A stretch of 64,000 bases of DNA from an uncultured Maribacter sp. (GCA_964507115.1 CAZDOW010000001.1:20806-84805); one strand, 5' to 3'; positions 8,357 through 26,514 are shown, counted from the first letter of the stretch. Numbers and translations: made by a program. The notes: a model not told the origin generated them from the letters alone.

Positions 8357-8432
8357 ACAAGTTTTATAAATGAAATAGAAAGCCCTAAAAGCAACAAAAT
8401 GCTAAAATATTCTATTAAGAGAAGCTCCTAAT

Positions 8433-10022
8433 CTAACAAACTTTAAAAAAAGTCTTATTCGTATTTATTTCTCCATTGGCTAACTTAGCCTCGATTTCCT
8501 TGGCGGTCTTTGTAATGGCTAGGCCTCCTAAACCGGTACAACAGAGTGTATTGGGTAGTGCATCGCCAACACGTTTCATAGTCTCTACCACTTCGTCTAG
8601 AGGAATTAAATGATCATAGTCTGACAAAGCCATGTTCGCGCAAGAAATAGCATTGGTGGCAGCCATTACATTTCTATTTAAGCATGGTGCTTCTACCCTA
8701 TCGGCAATCATATCGCAAATCATGCCCAAGCTGGATTGCAAAGCCATTGAGGCTGCTGAAATGGACTGATTCAAGGTTCCATTTTTTAATCCAACAATAC
8801 CTGCTGCTGCCATTCCTGATGCTGATCCACATTCGGCCATACATCCACCTACTTCAGCAGCAAAGGTAGCATGCGCTGCTATGAACACACCAATAATTCC
8901 TGCAGCTAGTAACGCTTTTATCATTTCGTCTTCTGAAAGCTCCAATGTTTTGCCTATACCAATTATTGCTCCTGGCAAAGCTCCGCAAGACCCTGCAGTT
9001 GGCGCTGCAACGATTACGCCCATAGAGCTTTTAACTTCCATCATGGCAGAAGTATATAGAATTACTTGGTTCAATACATCTCCGGCAACCAGTTTTTTGC
9101 CATCCATCTTTTCTTGAAAAGTCAAAGACTGTGGGCCAAGTATACGATCTGCATATTTCGTTCCTTGTAAACCAAGGTCGATAGCATTTCGCATAATTTT
9201 TAAAATATCCCGCATCTTTTCAAAAACTGCTTCCTCGGAAATAGCACCTCGCATACTTTCATAAGCAACGGCCAACTCCCATAATTCAAGATTCTTACCT
9301 GTATTATACTCTAGCATTTCGTTGCACGTAATAAAAGGAACCTTTAGATCCTTGCGTGCCATTACCGGAAGTACAGGCTTCATTTTTTTGATAAAAAGTA
9401 CCTCATTCATTTCTAGCAGGGCTGCCTCTAGATTGGCTGGAATAAATTGATTGGCTTTTATTTCTATGAAAGTAGATGTTCCTTCACGCAATGTAATCTC
9501 GTCACAATCAAAAGAAGCTTCAATATGTTTTATAAGCTGAACCGGGGATTTAACGTAAATCAAAGTTTGATAGAAATCTCCTGCCATCAATACCGGAGCA
9601 CCATCAATTTCAATAACTTCTATCATCCCACCTCCAGTTGAAATGGCCGTAACCATTCGGGTCTCTTTTTGGTTCTTTAGCGTAAGTTTATAGGTGTTTG
9701 GATGCGTTGCACCAATAGGATGAATATCGATTTTGATTTGAATACCTGCTTCATCAATGGCCTGTAAGTAATTAGGTAGGCGTTTCTCATCCGCTTCCCA
9801 CCCCATAAATCCACCAAAAAGCCCCATATCCGAACCTTGACCCTTATGGGTCGTAGCTAATGAACCGTTAGTATCAAACTCAATATGTACTTCTTTGATA
9901 TTCCCATCCATTAAATCGAGACACATTCTTCCAATTCGTAAAGAAGCTGCACAGTGAGAACTGGAGGGTCCTCGCATAACAGGACCTATAACATCATTAA
10001 ATATGCTAGGATATTTTTTCAT
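8433..10022 (-). CDS. sdaA: L-serine ammonia-lyase (iron-sulfur-dependent L-serine dehydratase), single-chain beta+alpha
   Basis: N-terminal IFNDVIGPVMRGPSSSHCAA plus the C-terminal alpha-domain motifs SCGALPG and GGCMAECGSASG. Confidence 0.85.
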   Translation of the reverse strand: MKKYPSIFNDVIGPVMRGPSSSHCAASLRIGRMCLDLMDGNIKEVHIEFDTNGSLATTHKGQGSDMGLFGGFMGWEADEKRLPNYLQAIDEAGIQIKIDIHPIGATHPNTYKLTLKNQKETRMVTAISTGGGMIEVIEIDGAPVLMAGDFYQTLIYVKSPVQLIKHIEASFDCDEITLREGTSTFIEIKANQFIPANLEAALLEMNEVLFIKKMKPVLPVMARKDLKVPFITCNEMLEYNTGKNLELWELAVAYESMRGAISEEAVFEKMRDILKIMRNAIDLGLQGTKYADRILGPQSLTFQEKMDGKKLVAGDVLNQVILYTSAMMEVKSSMGVIVAAPTAGSCGALPGAIIGIGKTLELSEDEMIKALLAAGIIGVFIAAHATFAAEVGGCMAECGSASGMAAAGIVGLKNGTLNQSISAASMALQSSLGMICDMIADRVEAPCLNRNVMAATNAISCANMALSDYDHLIPLDEVVETMKRVGDALPNTLCCTGLGGLAITKTAKEIEAKLANGEINTNKTFFKVC

Positions 10023-10533: not shown

Positions 10534-11145
10534 ATGCCTTTCAAAAAATTACATCCAGAACTACTCGAAAGACTGGAACAATTTGAAATTTCTGAACCTA
10601 CATCTTTTCAAAAAAAAAGTATTCCGGTGGTAAAAAGTGGCGCCAATGTATTTTGTGTAGCACCCAAAGACAATGGAAAAACAACTACACTCATCCTTAC
10701 CACTTTGCAGAAAATTGGCTATAAAGCAGAGGGGAATGCACCAAGGGCAGTTGTAATTGTAGAAAATAAGACAAAAGCACTTGAGCTCTACAATACTTTT
10801 CTAAATTTCACCAAATACAGTAATGTAAGGGTTTACGTTGGGTATGAGGAACTTCATATCGATATTCAAAAATCAGAAATATTTGAGGGTATTGATATTT
10901 TAATTTCCACTCCAAAAACCTTGAATAAGTTATTCTTATTAAATGGCGTAAGCACTTCACAGCTAAAACTTTTTAGTATTGATGATGCTGATTTTCTATT
11001 GCAAAAATCAGATGGTAGCGCAATCATTTCTGTAACACAGAGTATTGAAAAATGCCAATATGTGTTATACTCAGAAACAATACACCCAAAGCTAAAGCGG
11101 TTCGAATCCTATTTTATGGAGCGGGCGAAAATGGTGAAAATATAG
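10534..11145 (+). CDS. Stand-alone DEAD-box helicase domain-1-like protein (degenerate motifs, no helicase C-terminal domain)
   Basis: 203 aa. Q-motif-like FQKKSIP; motif I APKDNGKTT (canonical AxTGSGKT); motif Ib STPKTL; motif II IDDAD (canonical DEAD); motif III SET (canonical SAT). Motifs IV-VI are absent and only 186 nt separate it from the next gene. Confidence 0.6.
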   Translation: MPFKKLHPELLERLEQFEISEPTSFQKKSIPVVKSGANVFCVAPKDNGKTTTLILTTLQKIGYKAEGNAPRAVVIVENKTKALELYNTFLNFTKYSNVRVYVGYEELHIDIQKSEIFEGIDILISTPKTLNKLFLLNGVSTSQLKLFSIDDADFLLQKSDGSAIISVTQSIEKCQYVLYSETIHPKLKRFESYFMERAKMVKI

Positions 11146-12292: not shown

Positions 12293-13429
12293 CTAAATAC
12301 CAAGTAGTCCAAAAGCGCCCTTAACCAAAAATTTCGCGTCCTCTGAAAACGCTTCTATCCCTTCAATACCCATATATGCCGCTCCGGTAGCACTAATAGT
12401 TACTTCTTGGGGATGAAAATAAAAAGCGTCTCCTTCCCTTTTGTCCAAGACCAAAACATAAGGGATTGCACCTACAAAGACTACCGCTTCACTTGGTAAC
12501 GCGTTTGCAGTTATAGCACTAGTTACAATCCTAGCATCTACAAACATCCCAGTCAGGAAATTATTCTTTGATTCGTCCATTAAGTGCCCGTGTACTTTTA
12601 TTGTGCGGTTTTCCTCCATAGCAGCACCTACTAGATAGACTTCAGCCTTAAAGCTTTCTTCTGATGCTTCAGGAATTTTAAAATCAATAGTTTGACCCTT
12701 TTTGATCTTCATAATATCTTTTTCAAAAACGGATAATTCTAAATGAATATGCTCGTTGTCTATAATCTCCAAAATGGAAGTAGCTGGTGAGACGTAGCTT
12801 CCCTTAGTAATATTGACCTTGGTAATACTGCCAGAAATGGGAGCGTAAACGACAGCTATAGCACTAATACTTCCTTGTGCTACTTTTGCAGGAGAAAAAT
12901 TGAGCATCTGTAATCGTCTTGCCAAACCTGTATGCCTAGCTACCGCTGATTTATACTCACTTTCTGATTTTAAAAGTTTTTTTTGTGAGGTAATGTTTTC
13001 TTCCCTCATTGTCTGATGCCGATTGTATTCGGCTTTCAAATAAGTTAATTGTTGATGCACTTCCATATACTCCTGTTGCAAGGCTAAGAATTCTGGATTT
13101 TCAATGGTTACCAGTACTTGACCCTTTTTGACGGTATCTCCTTCCAATAAAGGGGTAGTTTTTATATAACCGCCCATGGATGCGCTTACGATAGCCCTAT
13201 TTTCTGGGGGCACATCAATACGCCCATTTACCGTAACCGAAACCGAAAATTGCTTTTCTTCCAGAGTACCTATCTGCATATTATTTGTTTTAAACTGCCT
13301 TGCGGTCACTTGGATAAGACCATTATCAACTTCCTCATTTTGAGAGTCTGAGTTCTGGGTTTTATCTCCACAGGCTGTAAAAACAGCGATAAGACTTAAG
13401 TATATAATTTTAGGTATCGAACGATTCAT
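12293..13429 (-). CDS. Efflux RND periplasmic adaptor subunit (CzcB/CusB-like membrane fusion protein)
   Basis: Lipoprotein signal (LIAVFTAC). Has lipoyl/barrel-sandwich motifs (V.KGQVLVTIENPEF) and a coiled-coil hairpin. Starts 10 nt downstream of the RND gene. Confidence 0.85.
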   Translation of the reverse strand: MNRSIPKIIYLSLIAVFTACGDKTQNSDSQNEEVDNGLIQVTARQFKTNNMQIGTLEEKQFSVSVTVNGRIDVPPENRAIVSASMGGYIKTTPLLEGDTVKKGQVLVTIENPEFLALQQEYMEVHQQLTYLKAEYNRHQTMREENITSQKKLLKSESEYKSAVARHTGLARRLQMLNFSPAKVAQGSISAIAVVYAPISGSITKVNITKGSYVSPATSILEIIDNEHIHLELSVFEKDIMKIKKGQTIDFKIPEASEESFKAEVYLVGAAMEENRTIKVHGHLMDESKNNFLTGMFVDARIVTSAITANALPSEAVVFVGAIPYVLVLDKREGDAFYFHPQEVTISATGAAYMGIEGIEAFSEDAKFLVKGAFGLLGI

Positions 13430-13439
13430 AAGATGCTGT

Positions 13440-16400
13440 TTATAAGGTTAGAAAATTGACGGCGATTGCAGTCTCATTGTACAGTTGGAGCTTATCCAAG
13501 TAATCTAGGGTTATTTCGTAAGCGCTTTCTAAGCTTTGGAGATACTGATAAAAATTAATTTCTCCATTCCTAAAACTACCATGTGCCGTTTTTAAGATTT
13601 CTTCGGATAAGGTAGCTCCATCATTTTCATAATAGTCTAGCGTTTCTTGCAACTGAGAAAGTTCTGTTTGCAAGATGCGGAGCTTACCATTTAGCTGAAC
13701 GGTATATTCTTTAGATTCAGCAATGGCTATATCTGCTGCTATGCCTGCCGCTTTTATACGAGAAGACGTACCTCCAAAAAGTAGGGGAATCTTAACCCCG
13801 AGCTGATAACCCGTCAAACGATCATTGGTATTTGCAGTGGTACCCTGAAAATACTCCAAACCAATATCGGGCAATAATTGTTGCTTTTCAAAACGTTTTT
13901 CCGCCTCAGACAAAGAAATACGGTTCTGGTAGTACTCCATTTCCGGACTGTTCGCTATTTCAATATTGCTTAGTGTAACCTTAAATATTGGCTCGTCCGC
14001 TATGCGTATACTGTCTTCCGTCTGTATTGTTTTTAGCAAGTTTGTATAGGCAATTTCCACCTCTTTTTGTGATGCACTGTAGTTGAGATGTATTTGCTTT
14101 TGTTTGGAGGCAGCGGTAATCTTCTCTAAATAATTAGTTTCTCCCAACTCAAAGCGTCTGGCTGCCACATTGGCAAAATTAGCATACATACTGTCCAATC
14201 TTTTATACACCCTTTCCTTTTCCCTAGCCACTTGAAAATTATAATACGCCGTAGTAAGCCTTCTTTCTAGCCCTTTTTTCTGAATTTCAAAAGTATTCTC
14301 AGAGAGGGTATACTTGGCCTTATTTAATTTCCTTTCTGAAAAATAAACCGTGGGGAAACGAAAATCCTGCTGAATACCAAACACGCGTAAGGGCTCGTTG
14401 TTTATGGTAATGTTGTTCTCGTCAAAATGATAATAGACTTGGGTTTTATCAAAAAGATAGGCACTTTCTACCATAGCGTCCGATCGTTCTACTTGTAAAC
14501 TACTTGCCCTTAATCCTGCATTATTTTCTAGGGCTATGGGAATAAGTTCCTGTAAGTTTTTAGGAGTTTCTTGCGCCATACTAGGTACTGCACAAAGAAA
14601 CATTAGCAAAGCCAACCCCGTAATCGGAAGTTTGGTTACCGTTTTTTGTTCCGGTTGTTTCCTGTTCAGATAGGCATACAATACGGGAAGTACCAACAAC
14701 GTCAGTATCGTAGCACTAATCAGGCCACCAATAACGACTGTAGCCAATGGACGTTGCACTTCCGCACCCGCATTGGTAGAAATCGCCATAGGTAAAAAGC
14801 CAAGCGCCGCTGCGAACGCTGTTAATAATACGGCTCGTAAACGATCTTTCGTACCTTGTTTTACTAGAGCCTCTATGGTTAAAAAACTACTGGCCTTTAA
14901 TTCCTTAAAATGCTCAATAAGTACAATTCCGTTAAGCACCGCAATACCAAAAAGTGCAATAAAACCTACACCTGCCGAAATGCTGAAGGGCATATCCCTA
15001 AGCCATAATAGGAAAACGCCTCCTACTGCAGCCAAGGGAATAGCAGAAAATATCATTAAAGCCTCGGTAACCGATGAAAAAGCGAAATACAATAGAATAA
15101 ATATGAGAATCAAAGCAATGGGAACCGCAATTAGCAAGCGTGACTTCGCACTTTCTAGATTCTCAAACTGACCACCATAGCTGATACTATACCCTACCGG
15201 TAATTTTATAGTTGAATTTATGAGTCCTTGAACATCCTCCACGACTGATTGTAGGTCGCGGTTTCTCACATTGACGCCCACAACGATCCTTCGCCTGGTA
15301 TCATCCCTAGAAATTTTAGCAGCTCCTGTTTTATATTCAATAGTTGCCAATTCCGAAAGCGGCACCTTTCCGCCATCTGGTAGGTCTACATAGAGCTGTT
15401 TCAGATTATCAATATCCTTTCGTTTTCCTTTATTCAAACGTACGACCAAATCAAAACGTTTTTCCCCTTCAAAAACACTTCCCGCTTCTTTTCCTGCAAA
15501 ACCCATGGAAACCATATCGTTGAGCGCTTGGATATTAAGCCCATATCTTGCAATTTTGGCACGGTCATATTGTATGTTCATTTCAGGTAGTCCATCTACT
15601 TTTTCAACCGAGATGTCGGCCGCACCAGGAACTTCCGAAATCAAAGCCCCAATCTCACTCCCCATTTTCGCTAATACCTCTAAATCCTCCCCAAAAATTT
15701 TAATAGCAATGTCCGCGCGTACTCCAGTAATCAATTCATTAAAACGCATTTCTATGGGTTGAGTAAATTCTACTTCCATTCCCGGAATCACCGTCAAAGC
15801 TTCTTTGAACTTCTCTGCCAATTCATCCTTTGTTCTGGCCGAAGTCCATTCTTTTTTCGGCTTTAGAATAATAATAACATCACTCTCCTCCATAGACATG
15901 GGATCCGTAGGTACTTCCGCAGCTCCTATTCTGGTAACTACTTGTTTTACCTCTGGAAACTCCTGTAAAAGGATGCGTTCTATTTTGGTGGTAATTTCTA
16001 CTGTAGTACTCAATGAAGTTCCCGTTTTTAGTATAGGTTGAATCACAAAGTCACCTTCATCCAAAGTAGGAACAAATTCTGCCCCCATACTGGCATAAAG
16101 ATATATGGATACTGAGAGCAGAGTCACCGCAATACCTAAAACTATTTTTTTACTTCTTAATGCCCAATCGATAAGCGGTTCATAACTCGTATTAAGCCAT
16201 TTCATTAAACGTACCGATACATTCTTGTCCGAATTTATGGATGGCCTCAAAAATAACGAAGCAGCTACTGGAACATAGGTGAAACATAATACCATCGCAC
16301 CTACTAAAGCAAAACTAAAGGTAAGTGCCATAGGTTTAAACATTTTGCCTTCCACACCGGTTAAAGAGAGTATGGGAATAAAAACGATTAAAATAATCAG

Positions 16401-17771
16401 CTGACCAAAGATGGCGGATTTCATCATTTTTGATGCTCCTGAAAACACAATAGTATCCTGGAACTCCTGCCGCTCTTTTATATCAAGTACGACCAACGCT
16501 TCTTTCTGTTGGGTAATCTTAAAAGCAATGAACTCTACAATAATTACTGCACCATCTATAATAATACCGAAATCTATTGCACCAAGACTCATTAAATTAG
16601 CATCCACACCAAAAATATACATGAGGGAAAGTGCGAAAAGAAGGCATAACGGAATGACGGATGCTACTACCAAACCAGAACGGAAATTCCCCAAAAGTAA
16701 AACCACTACAAAAATAACAATCAAACAGCCCAGAATAAGATTTTCAGAAACGGTAAAGGTTGTCTTTGAAATTAACTCGCTGCGATCTAAAAATGCATTT
16801 ATATATACACCTTCCGGTAGTGATTTAGAGATTTCTGAAACACGTTTTTTTACAGCATCTATTACATTTTTAGAATTAGCATCCTTAAGCATCATTACCT
16901 GCCCCAGCACTTTTTCTCCTTCACCGTTTCCGGTAATGGCACCAAACCGGGTGGCGTTACCAAAACCTACTTCCGCTACATCCTTGATGTAGACTGGAAT
17001 TCCGTTTCTATTTACAACTACAATAGCCTCGATATCTTTAAGCGATGAAATCAAACCTTCGCCACGAATAAAAAATGCCTGATTTACCTTCTCTATATAT
17101 CCGCCACCGGAAACACTATTATTTTGTTGCAAGGCTTTGAAAACAGCCTGTGCAGTAATATCCATGGCATTGAGTTTTTCCGTATTTATGGCAACTTCAT
17201 ACTGTTTTAATAAACCGCCCCAAGTATTTACTTCTACCACCCCGGGAATTCCTGACAGCTGCCGTTTTACAATCCAATCCTGAATAGTTCGTAAATCTTC
17301 TGCGTTGTACTGGTCTTTATATTCTGGTTCAACATCAAGAATGTATTGGTATATTTCTCCCAACCCTGTGGTTATGGGACCCATTTCTGGTGTACCAAAA
17401 CCATCTGGAATCTTCTCGCTAGCAGATTTTATTTTTTCAGCAATCAATTGCCTAGGTAAGTAAGTACCCATATCGTCTTCAAAAACGATAGTAACAACCG
17501 AAAGTCCAAATTTGGAAATCGACCTAATCTCTTTTACGCCAGGTAGATTGGCCATTTCCAGCTCCACAGGGTAGGTGATAAACTGCTCCATATCTTCGGT
17601 AGCAAGGTTCCTAGACGTGGTTATAACCTGCACCTGATTGTTGGTAACGTCGGGTACGGCACCAATTGGAATTTGGGATAAAGCATATAACCCATAACCA
17701 ACAATGAAACTGGTAAACAAGAGTATTAGAAACTTGTTCCGTAAACTGAAATTAATAATATAGGATAGCAT
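13440..17771 (-). CDS. CzcA/CusA-type heavy-metal RND permease fused in frame to a TolC/CzcC-type outer-membrane factor
   Basis: Continuous frame. The track ORF of 1454 aa begins at TTG 17804. ATG 17771 gives the canonical RND N-terminus MLSYIINFSLRNKFLIL. The 12-TM RND body covers about 1035 aa. An internal signal-peptide-like segment ends ...CAVPSMA/QE at nt 14571/14570. The last 376 aa (13443-14570) look like an OMF. Confidence 0.85.
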   Translation of the reverse strand: MLSYIINFSLRNKFLILLFTSFIVGYGLYALSQIPIGAVPDVTNNQVQVITTSRNLATEDMEQFITYPVELEMANLPGVKEIRSISKFGLSVVTIVFEDDMGTYLPRQLIAEKIKSASEKIPDGFGTPEMGPITTGLGEIYQYILDVEPEYKDQYNAEDLRTIQDWIVKRQLSGIPGVVEVNTWGGLLKQYEVAINTEKLNAMDITAQAVFKALQQNNSVSGGGYIEKVNQAFFIRGEGLISSLKDIEAIVVVNRNGIPVYIKDVAEVGFGNATRFGAITGNGEGEKVLGQVMMLKDANSKNVIDAVKKRVSEISKSLPEGVYINAFLDRSELISKTTFTVSENLILGCLIVIFVVVLLLGNFRSGLVVASVIPLCLLFALSLMYIFGVDANLMSLGAIDFGIIIDGAVIIVEFIAFKITQQKEALVVLDIKERQEFQDTIVFSGASKMMKSAIFGQLIILIVFIPILSLTGVEGKMFKPMALTFSFALVGAMVLCFTYVPVAASLFLRPSINSDKNVSVRLMKWLNTSYEPLIDWALRSKKIVLGIAVTLLSVSIYLYASMGAEFVPTLDEGDFVIQPILKTGTSLSTTVEITTKIERILLQEFPEVKQVVTRIGAAEVPTDPMSMEESDVIIILKPKKEWTSARTKDELAEKFKEALTVIPGMEVEFTQPIEMRFNELITGVRADIAIKIFGEDLEVLAKMGSEIGALISEVPGAADISVEKVDGLPEMNIQYDRAKIARYGLNIQALNDMVSMGFAGKEAGSVFEGEKRFDLVVRLNKGKRKDIDNLKQLYVDLPDGGKVPLSELATIEYKTGAAKISRDDTRRRIVVGVNVRNRDLQSVVEDVQGLINSTIKLPVGYSISYGGQFENLESAKSRLLIAVPIALILIFILLYFAFSSVTEALMIFSAIPLAAVGGVFLLWLRDMPFSISAGVGFIALFGIAVLNGIVLIEHFKELKASSFLTIEALVKQGTKDRLRAVLLTAFAAALGFLPMAISTNAGAEVQRPLATVVIGGLISATILTLLVLPVLYAYLNRKQPEQKTVTKLPITGLALLMFLCAVPSMAQETPKNLQELIPIALENNAGLRASSLQVERSDAMVESAYLFDKTQVYYHFDENNITINNEPLRVFGIQQDFRFPTVYFSERKLNKAKYTLSENTFEIQKKGLERRLTTAYYNFQVAREKERVYKRLDSMYANFANVAARRFELGETNYLEKITAASKQKQIHLNYSASQKEVEIAYTNLLKTIQTEDSIRIADEPIFKVTLSNIEIANSPEMEYYQNRISLSEAEKRFEKQQLLPDIGLEYFQGTTANTNDRLTGYQLGVKIPLLFGGTSSRIKAAGIAADIAIAESKEYTVQLNGKLRILQTELSQLQETLDYYENDGATLSEEILKTAHGSFRNGEINFYQYLQSLESAYEITLDYLDKLQLYNETAIAVNFLTL

Positions 17772-17852
17772 TTTACATAAAATAATTAACGTGAATAGAC
17801 CCAAATAGCAGTTGATGCTTGGTGCTAAAAAAAATGAATGTTCGTAATTATG

Positions 17853-18251
17853 TTATGCTCTCCGGGGAGGCTGAAGAATACCCTCAGAGTGAAGTGAGGA
17901 CAAGGGTGCCCTATAATAAAAATCGAAGGTTCTAAATTCTGATAAATCTAAAGTATTTAGGTCTGTAACAGAGATATTCATGGTAAAATCCATTACGGAT
18001 ATAGTATGGGAATGGTGCTGAAAAGGCAATTGATCATGATCTTCCTTTTCCTCTTGATGTTCTTTGTCATGTGCAGCCTTTAGCTCCCCGTAATGCTTTG
18101 AAATGAACACCACCACATTATCTCCATATTGTTCACTGTGGAACTGAGCATGTTCAATGAACTCGTCTATTTGTACCAAATCATCTATATGCATCCCGAA
18201 GCTTTGAAGCAGGATAACGGAAGATAATAGAATGGAAAATAGTTTGCTCAT
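17853..18251 (-). CDS. Secreted His-rich small protein (candidate metal-binding component of the RND operon)
   Basis: 132 aa with signal peptide MSKLFSILLSSVILLQSFG. It has 11 His, 10 of them in residues 21-82, including HDKEHQEEKEDHDQLPFQHHSH. It ends 81 nt upstream of the RND ATG on the same strand. Confidence 0.6.
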   Translation of the reverse strand: MSKLFSILLSSVILLQSFGMHIDDLVQIDEFIEHAQFHSEQYGDNVVVFISKHYGELKAAHDKEHQEEKEDHDQLPFQHHSHTISVMDFTMNISVTDLNTLDLSEFRTFDFYYRAPLSSLHSEGILQPPRRA

Positions 18252-18342
18252 CTATCCAAAGTTAAAAAAATATGGCGAACTAGAGGAAAAACAATACAAG
18301 AAAATAACGAACGCTAACCAGAGTATCTACTACAACAGAAAA

Positions 18343-20703
18343 CTAAAAATCGATTACAACGCCAATACCGGGAATCACTTGTCCTGCTTCTTGTTCTATA
18401 ATTGCTAGGCTTCTCGGTTGAACAATCATACCACTAGGATCTCTAGTTAATCCGTAATCCGGTGGACTAGGATTGTTCTGACTCAATACATTTTGAGCTT
18501 CAATAAAAAGGTTCAAGGCGAATTTTTCAAAATTCCATTTTTTGTCTAAACGGATATCCAACTGACTAAAAATCTCTAGTTTATCATCTCCTAACCTGGA
18601 ATAATCCAAAATAACCTCTGGATAATTCTCTAGGGTTGCATCCAAATCAGCGGGTACAAAAGGAGTTCTACCAGCAAAGCGATATCTGGAACTCAATTCC
18701 CAATTGCGATTAAACTTATAACCGCCAACAAAGGAAACCAAGTGCCTACTATCCCAAACCGATGGGATATAATTACTAGTATCAAAGCCAGTGAACTCAC
18801 TGTAGAAATAGGTATAGGCAAAAATGCCATAGAAGTTATTCGATAATTTTTGCTGAAATTGAAGTTCAGCACCGTAGCTGCGACCTTTCCCTACAGTTTC
18901 AATAGGTTCACTACCTAAAACTTCAAATCCACCTCCTTTATTTGCTAGGGAAACCTCGTCACGTACAGAAACTGGATAATCATCATAACGTTTATAAAAA
19001 CCTTCCACCGAAATACTGGAGGATGGTGTAAAATAATGTTGTAATCCCACAACGAAATGGTCACTCAGGGTATAATCCACATTTTGATTGATTAACTCAT
19101 CTGCATTATTTCTAAAACCCAAAATGGTGTACGGTGGTATTTTAAAATAGCGCCCTACGGAACCGTTTAAACGCCAGTCAGGTGCGAACTCATAGGAGGC
19201 AGACATCCTTGGGGAAAATGTGCTTAGTAAATTATCGTTTTGAGTAAAGGTATCGTCATCCATTCTAAAACCAAAAGAAAGATCTAGCTTGTTATTTACA
19301 AACGAACGGGTAATATTGGCAAAAACACCATACTTTATAAAATCAATATCCGTAGTAAAGACAAGATTGTTTCTAATGTCATTGGTCGTATTGTTGTAGT
19401 CCGAATGTTGCAAATTTAGACCTGTACTCAATTTCCAACCATCAAAAAATTGGGTAAGCTCATAACGAAGTTTTGTTTCTGATTCTCGAGCATCGTTGCC
19501 GAAAATAACCCCAGTTTCATTAACGGGGTCAGAATATCGCGTAAAGTTGTTGTAGAGTGTATTGTTACTTAATGTTGTAAGCATAAACCCATTACCTTCC
19601 TTAAAACGATTACGCCAAGTAACCCCCATAGTGTTGGTGCGTTGTTTAATAAACGGAGTTTGTTCAATTTGAGCTTGTTGCTCTTCGTCAAACTCTTCTG
19701 GTGGACTCACAGAAAAATCATCTATAGATCCTAAACCCAAAAAGGTTAGGGTATTATATTCATCCAACTCATGATTCACTTTGTATTGGTAATCCCAATA
19801 ATCGGGGCGTATGGGCAAACCAATAGCTTGAAAAAGAAACTGTAGATAACTTCGTCGTACAGATGCCAAAAACGTAGTCTTGGAGGCTTCTCCTTGTTGT
19901 TTAAACAAGGGTCCTTCCAAAGTTAGAGCAGCCTCACTTGAACTTAACCTGAAGTTACCAGCAAAGTTCCTAGCGTTACCATTTCGTTGCTGAAACTGTA
20001 ACACCCCAGATAAGGGATTATCATAACGAGCATTAAAGGCAGATGTAGATAGGGTTACATTCTCTATAAAAGATACATTGATAAGACCCACTGGCCCACC
20101 AGCACTTCCTTGGGTAGCAAAGTGGTTGATATTAGGAATCTCCATACCGTCCAAATAGTAAACTGTCTCATTGGGCGCACCCCCACGAATAATTAAATCG
20201 TTTCTAAAACCTCCAATAGAAGGGGATACACCAGGCAAGGTTTGTGCAACCTGAACTACATCATTATTACTCCCGGGATAGGTTGCAATCTCTACTGCGG
20301 AAAGCGTTTGAGTAGACAAAGGGGTCTCCTTAGGCCGCGTAATAATATTGGCATTAGAAAGCACCACTTCATCCAATTGCTCAGCTGCTTCTTCCAGTAT
20401 AAAGTTATAAGTAGGTGTACCCTTAGAACGAACAATAATATTAAACTGTGTTTGTGATCCATACCCTAAATAACTGGCAATTAAATTATAAGAACCCGGA
20501 GCAACTCCTTTAATCTCATAATTACCATCAAAATCGGTCTGGGCTCCCAGTTCGGTTCCTTCCAAAAAAACAGAGGCTCCACCAATAGGCTCTCCAAAAT
20601 CATCTTTAACGCTACCATAAAAGTTTACGGTAACTTGGGCACTGGAATATGTTGTAACCAAAACTAAGACAAGGAGGGTAATTGACTTGATATTTTCGCA
20701 CAT
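18343..20703 (-). CDS. TonB-dependent outer-membrane receptor with N-terminal carboxypeptidase-regulatory-like domain
   Basis: CarboxypepD_reg-like start (GSVKDDFGEPIGGASVFLEG...GNYEIKGVAPGSYNLIASYLGY), then plug and a beta-barrel ending in aromatic ...VVIDF. The track ORF opens at TTG 20760. ATG 20703 gives signal MCENIKSITLLVLVLVTTYSSAQ. Confidence 0.85.
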   Translation of the reverse strand: MCENIKSITLLVLVLVTTYSSAQVTVNFYGSVKDDFGEPIGGASVFLEGTELGAQTDFDGNYEIKGVAPGSYNLIASYLGYGSQTQFNIIVRSKGTPTYNFILEEAAEQLDEVVLSNANIITRPKETPLSTQTLSAVEIATYPGSNNDVVQVAQTLPGVSPSIGGFRNDLIIRGGAPNETVYYLDGMEIPNINHFATQGSAGGPVGLINVSFIENVTLSTSAFNARYDNPLSGVLQFQQRNGNARNFAGNFRLSSSEAALTLEGPLFKQQGEASKTTFLASVRRSYLQFLFQAIGLPIRPDYWDYQYKVNHELDEYNTLTFLGLGSIDDFSVSPPEEFDEEQQAQIEQTPFIKQRTNTMGVTWRNRFKEGNGFMLTTLSNNTLYNNFTRYSDPVNETGVIFGNDARESETKLRYELTQFFDGWKLSTGLNLQHSDYNNTTNDIRNNLVFTTDIDFIKYGVFANITRSFVNNKLDLSFGFRMDDDTFTQNDNLLSTFSPRMSASYEFAPDWRLNGSVGRYFKIPPYTILGFRNNADELINQNVDYTLSDHFVVGLQHYFTPSSSISVEGFYKRYDDYPVSVRDEVSLANKGGGFEVLGSEPIETVGKGRSYGAELQFQQKLSNNFYGIFAYTYFYSEFTGFDTSNYIPSVWDSRHLVSFVGGYKFNRNWELSSRYRFAGRTPFVPADLDATLENYPEVILDYSRLGDDKLEIFSQLDIRLDKKWNFEKFALNLFIEAQNVLSQNNPSPPDYGLTRDPSGMIVQPRSLAIIEQEAGQVIPGIGVVIDF

Positions 20704-20920
20704 AACTTTGTTTAATTTTTTTAAACTAATAATCAACAAAAATAAATACTTAATTACCAAGATTCACCTTAATGAGATGTTAAAATCAGAGATTACTTGA
20801 CTAAAACTATTCTAGTAGAAATTTCCTAACCTTAAACCGTATGTAATGTTTTGCTGTAAACCAGGGAAAAACATGGCATGAGGCGACATGGGTATAGCGC
20901 AAAGCGAATAGTCCATAATT

Positions 20921-22471
20921 TTACCAAGAAATGGGAAAATAATCCTTGAGAAACTTCCCGCACCAGTGCTTTCCTGTATTGATACCATCGAATAAGGGAT
21001 CCATTACCCTAGCAGCACCATCAACAATATCCAAAGGCGGTTGGAAATCGTGTACTTCTTGTTTCTTTTTCGCCAGCTCTGCCGGGTCCTCGTCAGTAAC
21101 CCATCCAGTATCCACGGCATTCATATAAATACCATATTTAGCTAGTTCTCCAGCAGAAGTATGCGTGAGCATATTGAGTGCAGCTTTTGCCATATTGGTG
21201 TGTGGGTGTCTTGCTTCCTTGAAAAAACGATGGAATTTACCTTCCATAGCCGAAACATTTATAATATGTTTCTGCCCTGTGTTCTCTTTTTTCATAAGTT
21301 CTGAAAGACGATTACATAGTACGAAGGGAGCAACGGAATTTACGAGCTGTACTTCTACCATTTCGGTAGTTTCAATAGCACCTAATTTCAAACGCCAGCT
21401 ATTGGTCTTTCTTAAATCTACCTGTTGCAGGTCGGCATCCAATTCTCCTTCTGGAAAAACTTCTTGCGGCACTAAACTTGCATCAAAGCTATATGGAATT
21501 TGGGAAAGCTTAGCGGAAGCACTTAAACCTATACCTGGTTGCGGTCCGTGCCAAGAAACAGGCATATTTTTTTGGGATGAAACACTGGCCGTTATGCCTC
21601 TCAGTTCTTCCAAACAACTTTTATGATTCGCCAATAAATCTTTCGCAAACTTAGGTAGGTTTTCTAACGGTATTTCCTCATTGGCCATTAAATGACTATA
21701 GAACCCAGAAGGCCTGCGAACCGTTTGCGCTGCGTTATTAATGAGAATGTCTAGTTTGTCATAATTCTGTTCAACATAATTACAGAAAATTTCTACACTG
21801 GGTATATGTCTTAAATCTAGACCATGTATGTGTAAACGATGCCCCCACTCCATAAAATCAGATTCCTTTGAAAAGCGTAAAGCAGAATCTATAGGGAAAC
21901 GCGTTGTTGCTATTACAGTCGCTCCACCTCGCAGTAACATAAGGGTAATATGATAGCCTATTTTTAACCGAGAACCTGTAATTACGGCTACTTGACCCTT
22001 TACATTGGCGGTTTGGAAACGTTTTAAATAATTTAAATCGCCACAAGCTGTACACATGGTATCATAGAAATGGTGTAGTGTGTCAAATTTGGCTTTGCAA
22101 ACGTAACAGTCCCTTTCAGATTCTAATTTTAAAATATCTCTTTTTTGTAAATCCGCCGCACTTAGAAGCTTTGGTGCTACAAACACCGTGTTCTCTCTGG
22201 CATACCGTATACCTGTTTGGTTTCTAGCACTCTTATCTTTGGCCGCTTGCTTTCTTTTAGCAGCTTTTTTACCATCCTTAATACGTCTAGAAAATTCTTC
22301 CCTACTAGGTCTTGATAGTTGTCCAGCAGACTTAATAAGTGCGACCCTAAGGTCTTTTGGAATCTCAAATATTTTATCGGTATCACTTACCAAACCTTCC
22401 AAGGTCGCAATACACCGTGTTATTTCCTCAACATCGATCTCAGAATTATTATTAAACTCACTCTTATTCAT
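20921..22471 (-). CDS. Atypical SDR-family oxidoreductase with a basic N-terminal extension and CX2CX14CX2C zinc-ribbon-like motif
   Basis: Rossmann TGSRLKIG and NNAA motifs. Cys122/125/140/143 fall at nt 22043-22108. The active-site region reads SAMEG...[11 protein letters not shown], followed by [11 protein letters not shown]. Confidence 0.75.
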
Positions 22472-25944: not shown

Positions 25945-26514
25945 CTACTTCCTTTTGACGGAACTTAAAAATTCTGGAGTCACTCCAAGATAAGATGCTA
26001 TTTGTTTCTGTGTTACTTTTTCGACTATTTCAGGGTAATTTTCAATGAACTGCCGATATCTTTCCTCTGTAGTAAATGATATATTATGGAGTGCCCTTAA
26101 TTGTTCACGTATATATGCATTTTGGAACAGAATTCTGAAAAAACGCTCTAACTTTGGTATTTTATGATAAAGTTTTTCAAGTAAATAATAATCCCATTCT
26201 ATTATCTTACTATCCTCAAGTGATTCTATAGATAATAGTGCTGGTTTTTGATTTACAAAACAATTCATATCTGTAATCCACCAATCTTGAACGGCAAACA
26301 TGATCGTAGATTCTTTCCCATCACCATTAACATTGAAAGCCCTTAAACTACCAGATTCAACAAAATATAACTTTTTGCACATTTTTCCTTGTTCCAGAAT
26401 AAGCTCTTTCCTATGAATATGTCTCACCGTCAAAGAAGATATTAACTGCTGTTCTTCAAAATCACTTAGCAAAATATGTCTTTGAATATTCTTTAATAGT
26501 TGATAATCATTCAC
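25945..26514 (-). CDS. Crp/Fnr family transcriptional regulator (cNMP-binding domain + C-terminal HTH)
   Basis: 189 aa with a beta-roll segment (KLYFVESGSLRAF) and HTH TQKQIASYLGVTPEFLSSVKRK. The first codon is GTG (plus-strand CAC at 26512-26514). The next in-frame Met is at residue 45. Confidence 0.8.
   Translation of the reverse strand: MNDYQLLKNIQRHILLSDFEEQQLISSLTVRHIHRKELILEQGKMCKKLYFVESGSLRAFNVNGDGKESTIMFAVQDWWITDMNCFVNQKPALLSIESLEDSKIIEWDYYLLEKLYHKIPKLERFFRILFQNAYIREQLRALHNISFTTEERYRQFIENYPEIVEKVTQKQIASYLGVTPEFLSSVKRK

Follow-up and report, generated by a model that had tools for sequence, protein, structure and literature searches.

A single gene for a metal-efflux RND permease and its outer-membrane factor, joined by a segment with signal-peptide character, in Maribacter and other Bacteroidota

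The fused gene and its parts

We analyzed a 64,000-nt stretch of DNA from an uncultured Maribacter sp. (the window; all coordinates are counted from its first letter), in which one gene encodes both an inner-membrane metal-efflux pump of the resistance-nodulation-division (RND) type and an outer-membrane channel, or outer-membrane factor (OMF). The open reading frame (ORF) listing and the translation gave a single uninterrupted frame on the minus strand that runs from ATG 17771 to TAA 13440-13442 and encodes 1443 aa, whereas the longest version of the same ORF (13440..17804, minus strand) is 1454 aa from an upstream TTG. We took ATG 17771 to be the real start because every complete ortholog opens with ML[ST/E/N/A]xII at the corresponding position. 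The parts of the gene and the two genes beside it are as follows.

14667..17771, minus strand: RND permease moiety of the CusA/CzcA/ZneA type, residues 1-1035, with 12 transmembrane (TM) segments and two large periplasmic loops
14631..14666, minus strand: n-region of the predicted internal signal peptide, N1036-K1047, NRKQPEQKTVTK, net charge +3
14586..14630, minus strand: h-region, L1048-V1062, LPITGLALLMFLCAV, a short hydrophobic span
14574..14585, minus strand: c-region, P1063-S-M-A1066, with the predicted signal peptidase I site A1066/Q1067
13443..14573, minus strand: OMF moiety, predicted TolC/CusC fold, residues 1067-1443, 377 aa, 43.4 kDa
13440..13442, minus strand: TAA stop codon of the fused gene, from the ORF translation
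12293..13429, minus strand: periplasmic adaptor of the CzcB/CusB type (HlyD_D23, E 6.9e-32; TIGR01730)
17853..18251, minus strand: small conserved ORF, 132 aa, hydrophobic near its N terminus and containing His-rich motifs

The whole signal-like segment comprises 31 residues (1036-1066, nt 14574-14666) and the Q1067 codon occupies 14571-14573. The computed masses are 160.0 kDa for the precursor, 116.7 kDa for the RND part including the 31-residue remnant, and 43.4 kDa for the OMF. A preliminary description of this DNA had proposed one ORF for the RND and OMF moieties, with the frame ends given above and the 1454-aa TTG version, and a layout in three parts comprising a full RND permease, a signal-like segment with n-, h-, and c-regions, and a complete OMF. 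The frame was confirmed by the ORF listing, the fusion was borne out by the Pfam, NCBIfam, AlphaFold2 (AF2), Foldseek, and hydropathy analyses, and the three-part layout stood; the boundary at the junction had to be moved, such that the segment occupies 14574-14666 instead of 14571-14666 and the mature OMF gains one residue, from 376 to 377 aa.

By family tests, the RND moiety is a full permease of the heavy-metal efflux (HME) type. The Pfam family ACR_tran spans residues 5-1035 (E 1.9e-276; model positions 1-1020 of 1021), and the NCBIfam model TIGR00914 (CusA/CzcA) scored 1172.1 bits against a cut-off of 701.45 over model positions 1-1043 of 1051. The solved structures nearest to this part are those of ZneA (4k0e, 658.7 bits) and CusA (588 bits). 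A Kyte-Doolittle scan, which is crude in comparison to a trained predictor, gave 12 TM peaks at approximately residues 14-34, 345-363, 366-393, 399-417, 453-471, 489-507, and 540-561 (TM1-TM7) and 879-897, 898-922, 934-952, 980-998, and 1012-1030 (TM8-TM12), together with a 13th, shorter hydrophobic peak at 1048-1062 that lies beyond the expected 12. TM4 carries the motif DFGIIIDGAVIIVE at residues 400-413. The TM4 proton-relay motif typical of divalent-cation HME pumps is DFGxxxDGAxxxVEN; at 400-414 (DFGIIIDGAVIIVEF) the window protein has the D, D, and E, with F in place of the final N. On the basis of DFGIIIDGAVIIVE and general knowledge of HME pumps, the substrates are probably divalent cations of the Zn/Co/Cd type; the metal specificity cannot be read from the TM4 motif at 400-414.

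The C-terminal moiety is, according to its structural model, a complete TolC-fold OMF. Pfam OEP (PF02321) matched it in two stretches (E 2.4e-21; 76.8 bits versus a cut-off of 22) that begin at L1073, six residues past the predicted cleavage site. When the OMF part was used as a single sequence, phmmer returned no match in the PDB at E ≤ 0.01, and a profile search of the PDB with the OMF alignment was uninformative, being swamped by the RND tail contained in that alignment. Residues 1036-1443 were modeled with AF2 from an alignment of 106 sequences; the model had a pLDDT of 91.2 and a pTM of 0.85, with low confidence in its first 30 residues, which are the signal-like segment. The model contains four beta-strands (76-82, 93-102, 267-276, and 283-292 in the model) and four long helices (105-173, 179-214, 298-366, and 372-404) arranged in two repeats. 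In a Foldseek comparison with the PDB, the 39 best matches were all OMFs (TMq 0.65-0.76, E about 1e-16); they include TolC, TOprJ1, SilC, CusC, and OprM (TMq 0.70-0.76), as well as CmeC, OprN, VceC, and MtrE, and the sequence identity to solved OMFs was just 13-17%. Sequence alone reached no solved structure, and we consider the fold to be settled by the structure prediction and the Foldseek matches. The earlier identification of this part as an OMF with two long helical repeats is thereby upheld.

Distribution and origin of the fusion

A genome scan that covered one genome per GTDB species found 39 related loci, 35 of which contain the whole gene. These loci are from Maribacter (76-82% identical), Dokdonia, Nonlabens, Aquimarina, Polaribacter, Cellulophaga, Hyunsoonleella, Poritiphilus, Algibacter, Leeuwenhoekiella, and Flavimarina, and from the Cytophagales genus Roseivirga at 41% identity. 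All 35 complete loci, comprising nine independent Maribacter-clade assemblies and 26 more distant ones, have one open, uninterrupted frame of 1438-1469 codons through the junction, and three of the four truncated loci are likewise open at this point. Because the frame is kept in all 35 complete loci, a missed stop or frameshift is excluded for practical purposes. We conclude from this conservation that the fusion is real and under selection.

The mature OMF alone was also used as the query for a HMMER search of all 1.84 billion cluster representatives. Among the best 150 OMF matches, at least 42 had RND TM12 directly upstream, approximately eight more had a VLPVLY tail, 54 were stand-alone proteins with an N-terminal leader, and the remainder were fragments. 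Fused full-length representatives (1447-1457 aa) were found down to 28% identity. As judged from these matches, the fusion is a major architecture of this OMF clade, and it is both widespread and evolutionarily labile. The suspicion voiced in the preliminary description, that similarly long CzcA entries exist among Bacteroidota, proved correct in that public databases hold them and about half of the 150 nearest OMF clusters are fused. A search of a word-indexed protein database listed no full-length fused protein of ∼1440 aa; the genome scan shows such proteins, and we treated this result as a limitation of the index. In the databases the fused proteins are named "CusA/CzcA family heavy metal efflux RND transporter" and, in one UniRef case, "TolC family protein". 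A third architecture, half an RND followed by an OMF, was considered for proteins of 600-770 aa encoded on long contigs (e.g., P0023 and P0046) and was rejected when P0023 (CP107030.2), the one examined, proved to stem from a frameshift inside the RND gene. Locus L046 (3501-8991; CP107030.2, a 4.5-Mb genome) has its RND::OMF broken into 845 + 611 aa by a frameshift, and we ascribe the odd database proteins consisting of an RND tail and an OMF to frameshifts of this kind. The adaptor of L046 is likewise split (97 + 284 aa); either the assembly is error-rich or the operon is decaying.

The survey of fused versus split orthologs envisaged in the preliminary description found both architectures. 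In the split relatives the genes follow the order small ORF, RND (1034-1041 aa), OMF, and adaptor. The RND and OMF genes share a 4-nt ATGA overlap in Lacinutrix algicola LIQH01000036 (L040) and are separated by an 11-nt gap in metagenome locus L044. The A-C-B order therefore predates the fusion, as these relatives already carry RND-OMF-adaptor; thus, the A::C-B order reported earlier was confirmed, but it does not reflect a rearrangement of C-B-A accompanying the fusion. The stand-alone OMFs (P0110, P0053, P0114, and others) possess a classical leader that ends with A, G, or S before Q and is homologous to the internal segment of the fused proteins. The leader and mature start of the Lacinutrix algicola protein are MKKKSIITIIILLLTFNIQA/QNKPLTIHETLELALENN, and two further stand-alone proteins have MPKKIISVVLLLCTFSVFG/QE... 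and ...KKALTILLFMVSLSGFS/QQ... at this position.

The DNA at the junction relates the two forms directly. In Lacinutrix it reads TTA AAA TGA in the RND frame and ATG AAG AAA AAG in the OMF frame, whereas the fused Algibacter gene reads TTA AAA ATG AAA AAG AAA, with one extra A in the A-run compared to Lacinutrix. The Algibacter fused protein, ...EEKSILK-MKKKNIISFIIL..., has the layout of the two Lacinutrix ends joined head to tail. A relic of the OMF start Met is kept in the linker of 10 of the 36 fused proteins, none of which belong to the Maribacter clade that includes the window. We constructed a neighbor-joining tree of 227 OMF domains and counted the changes between fused and split states by Fitch parsimony. 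The state required 41 changes, versus 52.6 for shuffled labels (shuffled minimum 46), and it is weakly clustered on this tree. Repeated interconversion of the fused and split forms is the simplest reading, despite some certain noise, and frequent switching argues that the two forms are functionally equivalent. The fusion is probably near-neutral selectively and its mechanism simple. An obligate 1:1 stoichiometry is possible as a selective reason and is without support. In one metagenomic lineage (L042, 4982-5899; L043, 1295-2212) an IS1595-family transposase stands in the place of the RND gene, upstream of a stand-alone OMF and adaptor; from this arrangement we interpret the lineage as an operon that lost its pump subunit.

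The junction and the predicted fate of the precursor

The segment formed by residues 1036-1066 has the character of a signal peptide in its residue pattern, with a basic n-region, a short h-region, small residues at positions -1 and -3, and Q at +1, but it is internal, starting at residue 1036 after TM12, and is not the N terminus of the precursor. Among the 36 fused orthologs, the net charge of the n-region was positive without exception (+1 to +9, mean +4.1; +3 in the window) and the uncharged h+c stretch measured 15-19 residues. At position -1, 25 proteins had A, 6 had G, and 5 had S. Position -3 held a small residue (S, G, T, or A) in 27 proteins and V, I, M, or L in the remaining 9, with no charged or aromatic residue in any of them; Gln stood at +1 in all 36. 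In a wider set of proteins, the median length of the h+c stretch was 17 residues in the fused forms versus 16 in the N-terminal leaders of the stand-alone relatives. The highest 11-residue Kyte-Doolittle window within the h-region of the window protein was 2.7. The pairwise identities of the 36 orthologs were 0.87 for TM12, 0.80 for the RND, 0.53 for the OMF, and 0.22 for the junction. The junction evolves as a signal peptide would, being divergent in sequence and invariant in physico-chemical pattern.

The Gln at +1 has a known context in this phylum. According to the Q-rule of Bacteroidetes, Gln occupies +1 in a mean of 71% of predicted signal peptidase I sites, and it is cyclized to pyroglutamate by a periplasm-facing glutaminyl cyclase (PMC5837995). 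For the stand-alone outer-membrane efflux protein Tanf_07615 of T. forsythia, a pyroGlu N terminus was observed after MKQFIFLWMAVILPFCAMA/Q (PMC5837995 supplementary data). Within the window linker there is no in-frame ATG, GTG, or TTG ahead of the hydrophobic core (V1045 is encoded by GTA and L1048 by CTT), so the window OMF can only come from the precursor.

We regard it as probable that the gene product is a polyprotein cut by signal peptidase I at A1066/Q1067. The preliminary description had allowed two outcomes for the OMF, clipping or permanent tethering, and the comparative evidence strongly favors clipping. The strongest single argument is that the sole known role of the invariant internal Gln requires a free N terminus. 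A second argument is geometric, in that a tethered OMF could not reach the outer membrane because only six residues join the site to the first OMF helix. In the AF2 model, ∼31 helical residues lie between the mature N terminus and the first barrel strand, and the long helices are ∼69 residues, or roughly 100 Å. The periplasmic domain of RND pumps is ∼70 Å tall, as in the AcrB, CusA, and ZneA structures. With distances estimated from the lengths of secondary-structure elements, the N terminus of a membrane-inserted OMF would be >100 Å from the inner membrane, a gap that six residues, spanning ≤ ∼20 Å, would not bridge.

The mechanism that we propose begins with loss of the stop between an RND gene and the OMF gene that followed it, by which both would be translated as one 160-kDa precursor. 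The RND part would insert co-translationally, with TM12 ending in the cytoplasm and the basic 12-residue loop staying inside. The former OMF leader, with its core of ∼15 residues, would then re-enter SecYEG in an N-in/C-out orientation, and the OMF would be threaded into the periplasm, much as TM1 and TM7 export the two periplasmic loops of the RND (∼300 residues each). Signal peptidase I would cut after A1066. The freed 43-kDa OMF would start with Gln, probably cyclized, to give the predicted N terminus pyroGlu-ETPKNLQELIPIALENNAGLR, and would be chaperoned to the outer membrane by the normal assembly route, where it would trimerize. The 117-kDa RND protein would retain the 31-residue signal remnant as a short C-terminal tail, and the finished pump would be an ordinary RND3-adaptor6-OMF3 assembly.

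Several points weigh against cleavage at this site and the scheme built on it. Our full-text literature searches found no experimental evidence of cleavage for any member of the family, and the site was assigned by rule rather than by a trained predictor. Signal peptidase does not always have access to an internal signal peptide located behind a TM helix. Within the wider set, 137 of 138 fused proteins and 56 of 59 stand-alone ones had a small(-1)/Q site adjoining the aligned position, but that survey favored Q among the candidate sites and is biased, such that it demonstrates the presence of a site and gives no unbiased frequency. Finally, homopolymer errors in metagenomes and errors in the neighbor-joining tree may make the fused/split transitions look more numerous than they are.

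Four other accounts of the gene product, and one of the gene itself, were weighed against the predicted cleavage of a near-neutral fusion. It is rather unlikely, but deserves consideration, that the fusion serves a purpose of its own, either as a biogenesis device (co-translational delivery of the OMF by the ribosome that is already docked for the RND part, enforcing a 1:1 ratio, perhaps with release of the OMF beside its own pump), as a regulated pro-pump in which cleavage of the precursor would be a point of control, or through an AcrZ-like 13th-helix remnant on the RND C terminus that modulates the pump. We find it improbable that the fusion stays uncleaved, with the segment acting as a permanent 13th TM helix and the tethered OMF working as a periplasmic duct or in a non-canonical assembly. 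The segment does appear as a 13th hydropathy peak, and cleavage is inferred rather than demonstrated throughout the family, but the uncharged stretch, at 15-19 residues, would make a short membrane anchor and equals the leaders of the stand-alone relatives, and nothing would explain why an uncleaved helix keeps an invariant small residue at -1 and Gln at +1 (36/36). Furthermore, a six-residue link would keep the four barrel strands from reaching the outer membrane, and the free interconversion with split operons points to identical end products.

The chance is slighter still that the OMF is made by internal translation initiation within the long ORF, the fusion product being minor or irrelevant. 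A Met is found at the ancestral OMF start in 10 of the 36 fused orthologs and initiation there could contribute in those lineages, but the window and the rest of the Maribacter clade lack any in-frame ATG, GTG, or TTG ahead of the core, the TTG codons lie only within the core and would yield a leader lacking an n-region, and the full frame is open in every locus. We give very little credence to release of the OMF as a lipoprotein by signal peptidase II at C1060, in the manner of the NodT/OprM/CusC family. Many proteobacterial OMFs are lipoproteins and the h-region of the window protein does include a Cys (LLMFLC/AV); however, the M-F-L that precedes it does not fit the lipobox L-[AS]-[GA]-C, most orthologs (e.g., L001, L003, L006, L007, and L009) lack this Cys, and the invariant feature is the A/G/S before Q that lies further downstream. 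Almost no weight attaches to a sequencing or assembly artefact, a missed stop or one-base indel that hides two genes, for even though one A in a homopolymer can separate the fused from the split form and at least one public genome (CP107030.2, L046) is frameshifted within this operon, nine independent Maribacter-clade assemblies share the junction length and frame of the window with no relic start codon, the 26 more distant complete loci are fused too, and the window linker NRKQPEQKTVTK has diverged well past a simple stop/start overlap.

The operon, its neighborhood, and related systems

The adaptor gene starts 10 nt past the stop of the fused gene, the spacing given in the preliminary description. 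Its product scored 130.6 bits with TIGR01730 (cut-off 94.9), and in every related locus whose sequence reaches that far an adaptor gene comes immediately afterward. The operon appears to consist of the small His-rich ORF, RND::OMF, and the adaptor, with the small ORF at 17853..18251 probably being the first gene. The product of this ORF matched no Pfam or NCBIfam family; it has the motifs EHxxFHxExYGD...HYG...H..H.E...H..LPF...QPP and aligns with the ORFs that immediately precede the RND gene in L040 and L044, both of them split loci, and it is also upstream in L046. Using tblastn, the small ORF was found in the 30 complete fused Flavobacteriaceae loci and was not found in the Roseivirga and HGW loci. 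The protein may assist the pump as a metal-binding accessory factor. Approximately 8 nt upstream of its ATG, at 18252-18275 (minus strand), is the sequence TAACTTTG, which fits what we take to be the Bacteroidetes -7 promoter element, TAnnTTTG; this suggests that the operon transcript starts very near the start codon of the small ORF. A scan for sigma-70 promoters and terminators gave background levels, the sigma-70 model not being informative for Bacteroidota.

Profile scans identified no CzcRS-, MerR-, or ArsR-type regulator within ∼8 kb, in agreement with the earlier report that no metal regulator is adjacent. A Crp/cNMP-binding regulator is encoded at 25945-26514 (minus strand), ∼8 kb from the operon, and a regulatory link is possible. 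In L042 a Crp-type regulator (8363-9064) directly follows the adaptor gene. The neighbors of related loci include a P-type ATPase, or ZIP and DtxR, or Crp and thioredoxin/ApbE genes, and these are consistent with metal homeostasis. Upstream of the operon in the window is a TonB-dependent receptor gene (18343-20760, minus strand) whose product has an N-terminal CarboxypepD_reg domain; the gene is syntenic (90-92% aa identity) only in Maribacter-clade loci. Further upstream, a 516-aa ORF (20921-22471, minus strand) matches short-chain dehydrogenases only at residues ∼368-468, and its N-terminal 360 residues match no family. An EamA transporter gene lies downstream of the operon in convergent orientation. 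A 203-aa ORF at 10534-11145 (plus strand) has only the DEAD domain of a DEAD-box helicase, with no Helicase_C, and a gap separates it from the EamA gene; it resembles a helicase gene that was truncated or has decayed.

The system resembles CzcCBA, ZneCAB, and CusCBA of Proteobacteria in its CusA/CzcA-family RND, CzcB/CusB-type adaptor, and TolC-fold OMF, and the finished machine is expected to be the same. It differs from them in that the RND and OMF are one polypeptide and the genes run A-C-B instead of C-B-A. In addition, its OMF, a non-lipoprotein, is short (377 aa), and a small His-rich ORF lies upstream with no adjacent two-component or MerR regulator. The split Flavobacteriaceae operons (L040 and L044) are closer, having orthologous genes in the same order, the small upstream ORF, and a homologous OMF signal peptide, but unlike the fused window gene they have a stop between RND and OMF, a separate OMF start, and a leader that is truly N-terminal. 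The nearest mechanistic precedent known to us is FbcH of Bradyrhizobium japonicum, a cytochrome b/c1 precursor for which processing at an internal signal peptide is said to have been demonstrated experimentally by Thony-Meyer et al. in 1991. As in the RND::OMF family, a polytopic inner-membrane protein and an exported protein are combined in one precursor. In contrast, both products of FbcH stay at the inner membrane in one complex, whereas the OMF must reach the outer membrane, and processing is reported to have been demonstrated for FbcH but is deduced for the RND::OMF family. Fused cytochrome b-c1 genes exist in Bradyrhizobiaceae (PMC4986455). The small residue at -1 and Gln at +1 are shared with the Q-rule substrates of signal peptidase I, including Tanf_07615 (PMC5837995); the leaders of the described substrates are N-terminal, whereas this one lies 1035 residues into the protein. 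Our full-text literature searches found no description of an RND-OMF or CzcA-CzcC fusion or of its processing, and the first 300,000 characters of a 2021 Chem Rev review of tripartite pumps mention no RND-OMF fusion. The architecture is widespread and apparently unstudied.

Tripartite efflux pumps are textbook three-gene machines, and here a 12-TM transporter and an outer-membrane channel are encoded as one polypeptide, an architecture that is common in marine and soil Bacteroidota. For annotation, surveys that rely on CusA/CzcA names would overlook the OMFs of the genomes concerned. The frequent changes between fused and split states show that architectures of this kind arise cheaply, given an ATGA overlap and a downstream signal peptide of compatible topology. 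If the fusion does serve as a biogenesis device, as a regulated pro-pump, or as the source of a modulating helix, it would be the first natural inner-/outer-membrane polyprotein with a functional reason for being one. If cleavage occurs as we propose, the family would provide a natural and widespread bacterial case in which signal peptidase I processes a membrane protein at an internal signal peptide that lies ∼1000 residues from the start, and it would offer a system for the study of internal signal recognition, of the Q-rule and pyroglutamate step, and of how an outer-membrane protein is passed on from a precursor that inserts co-translationally.

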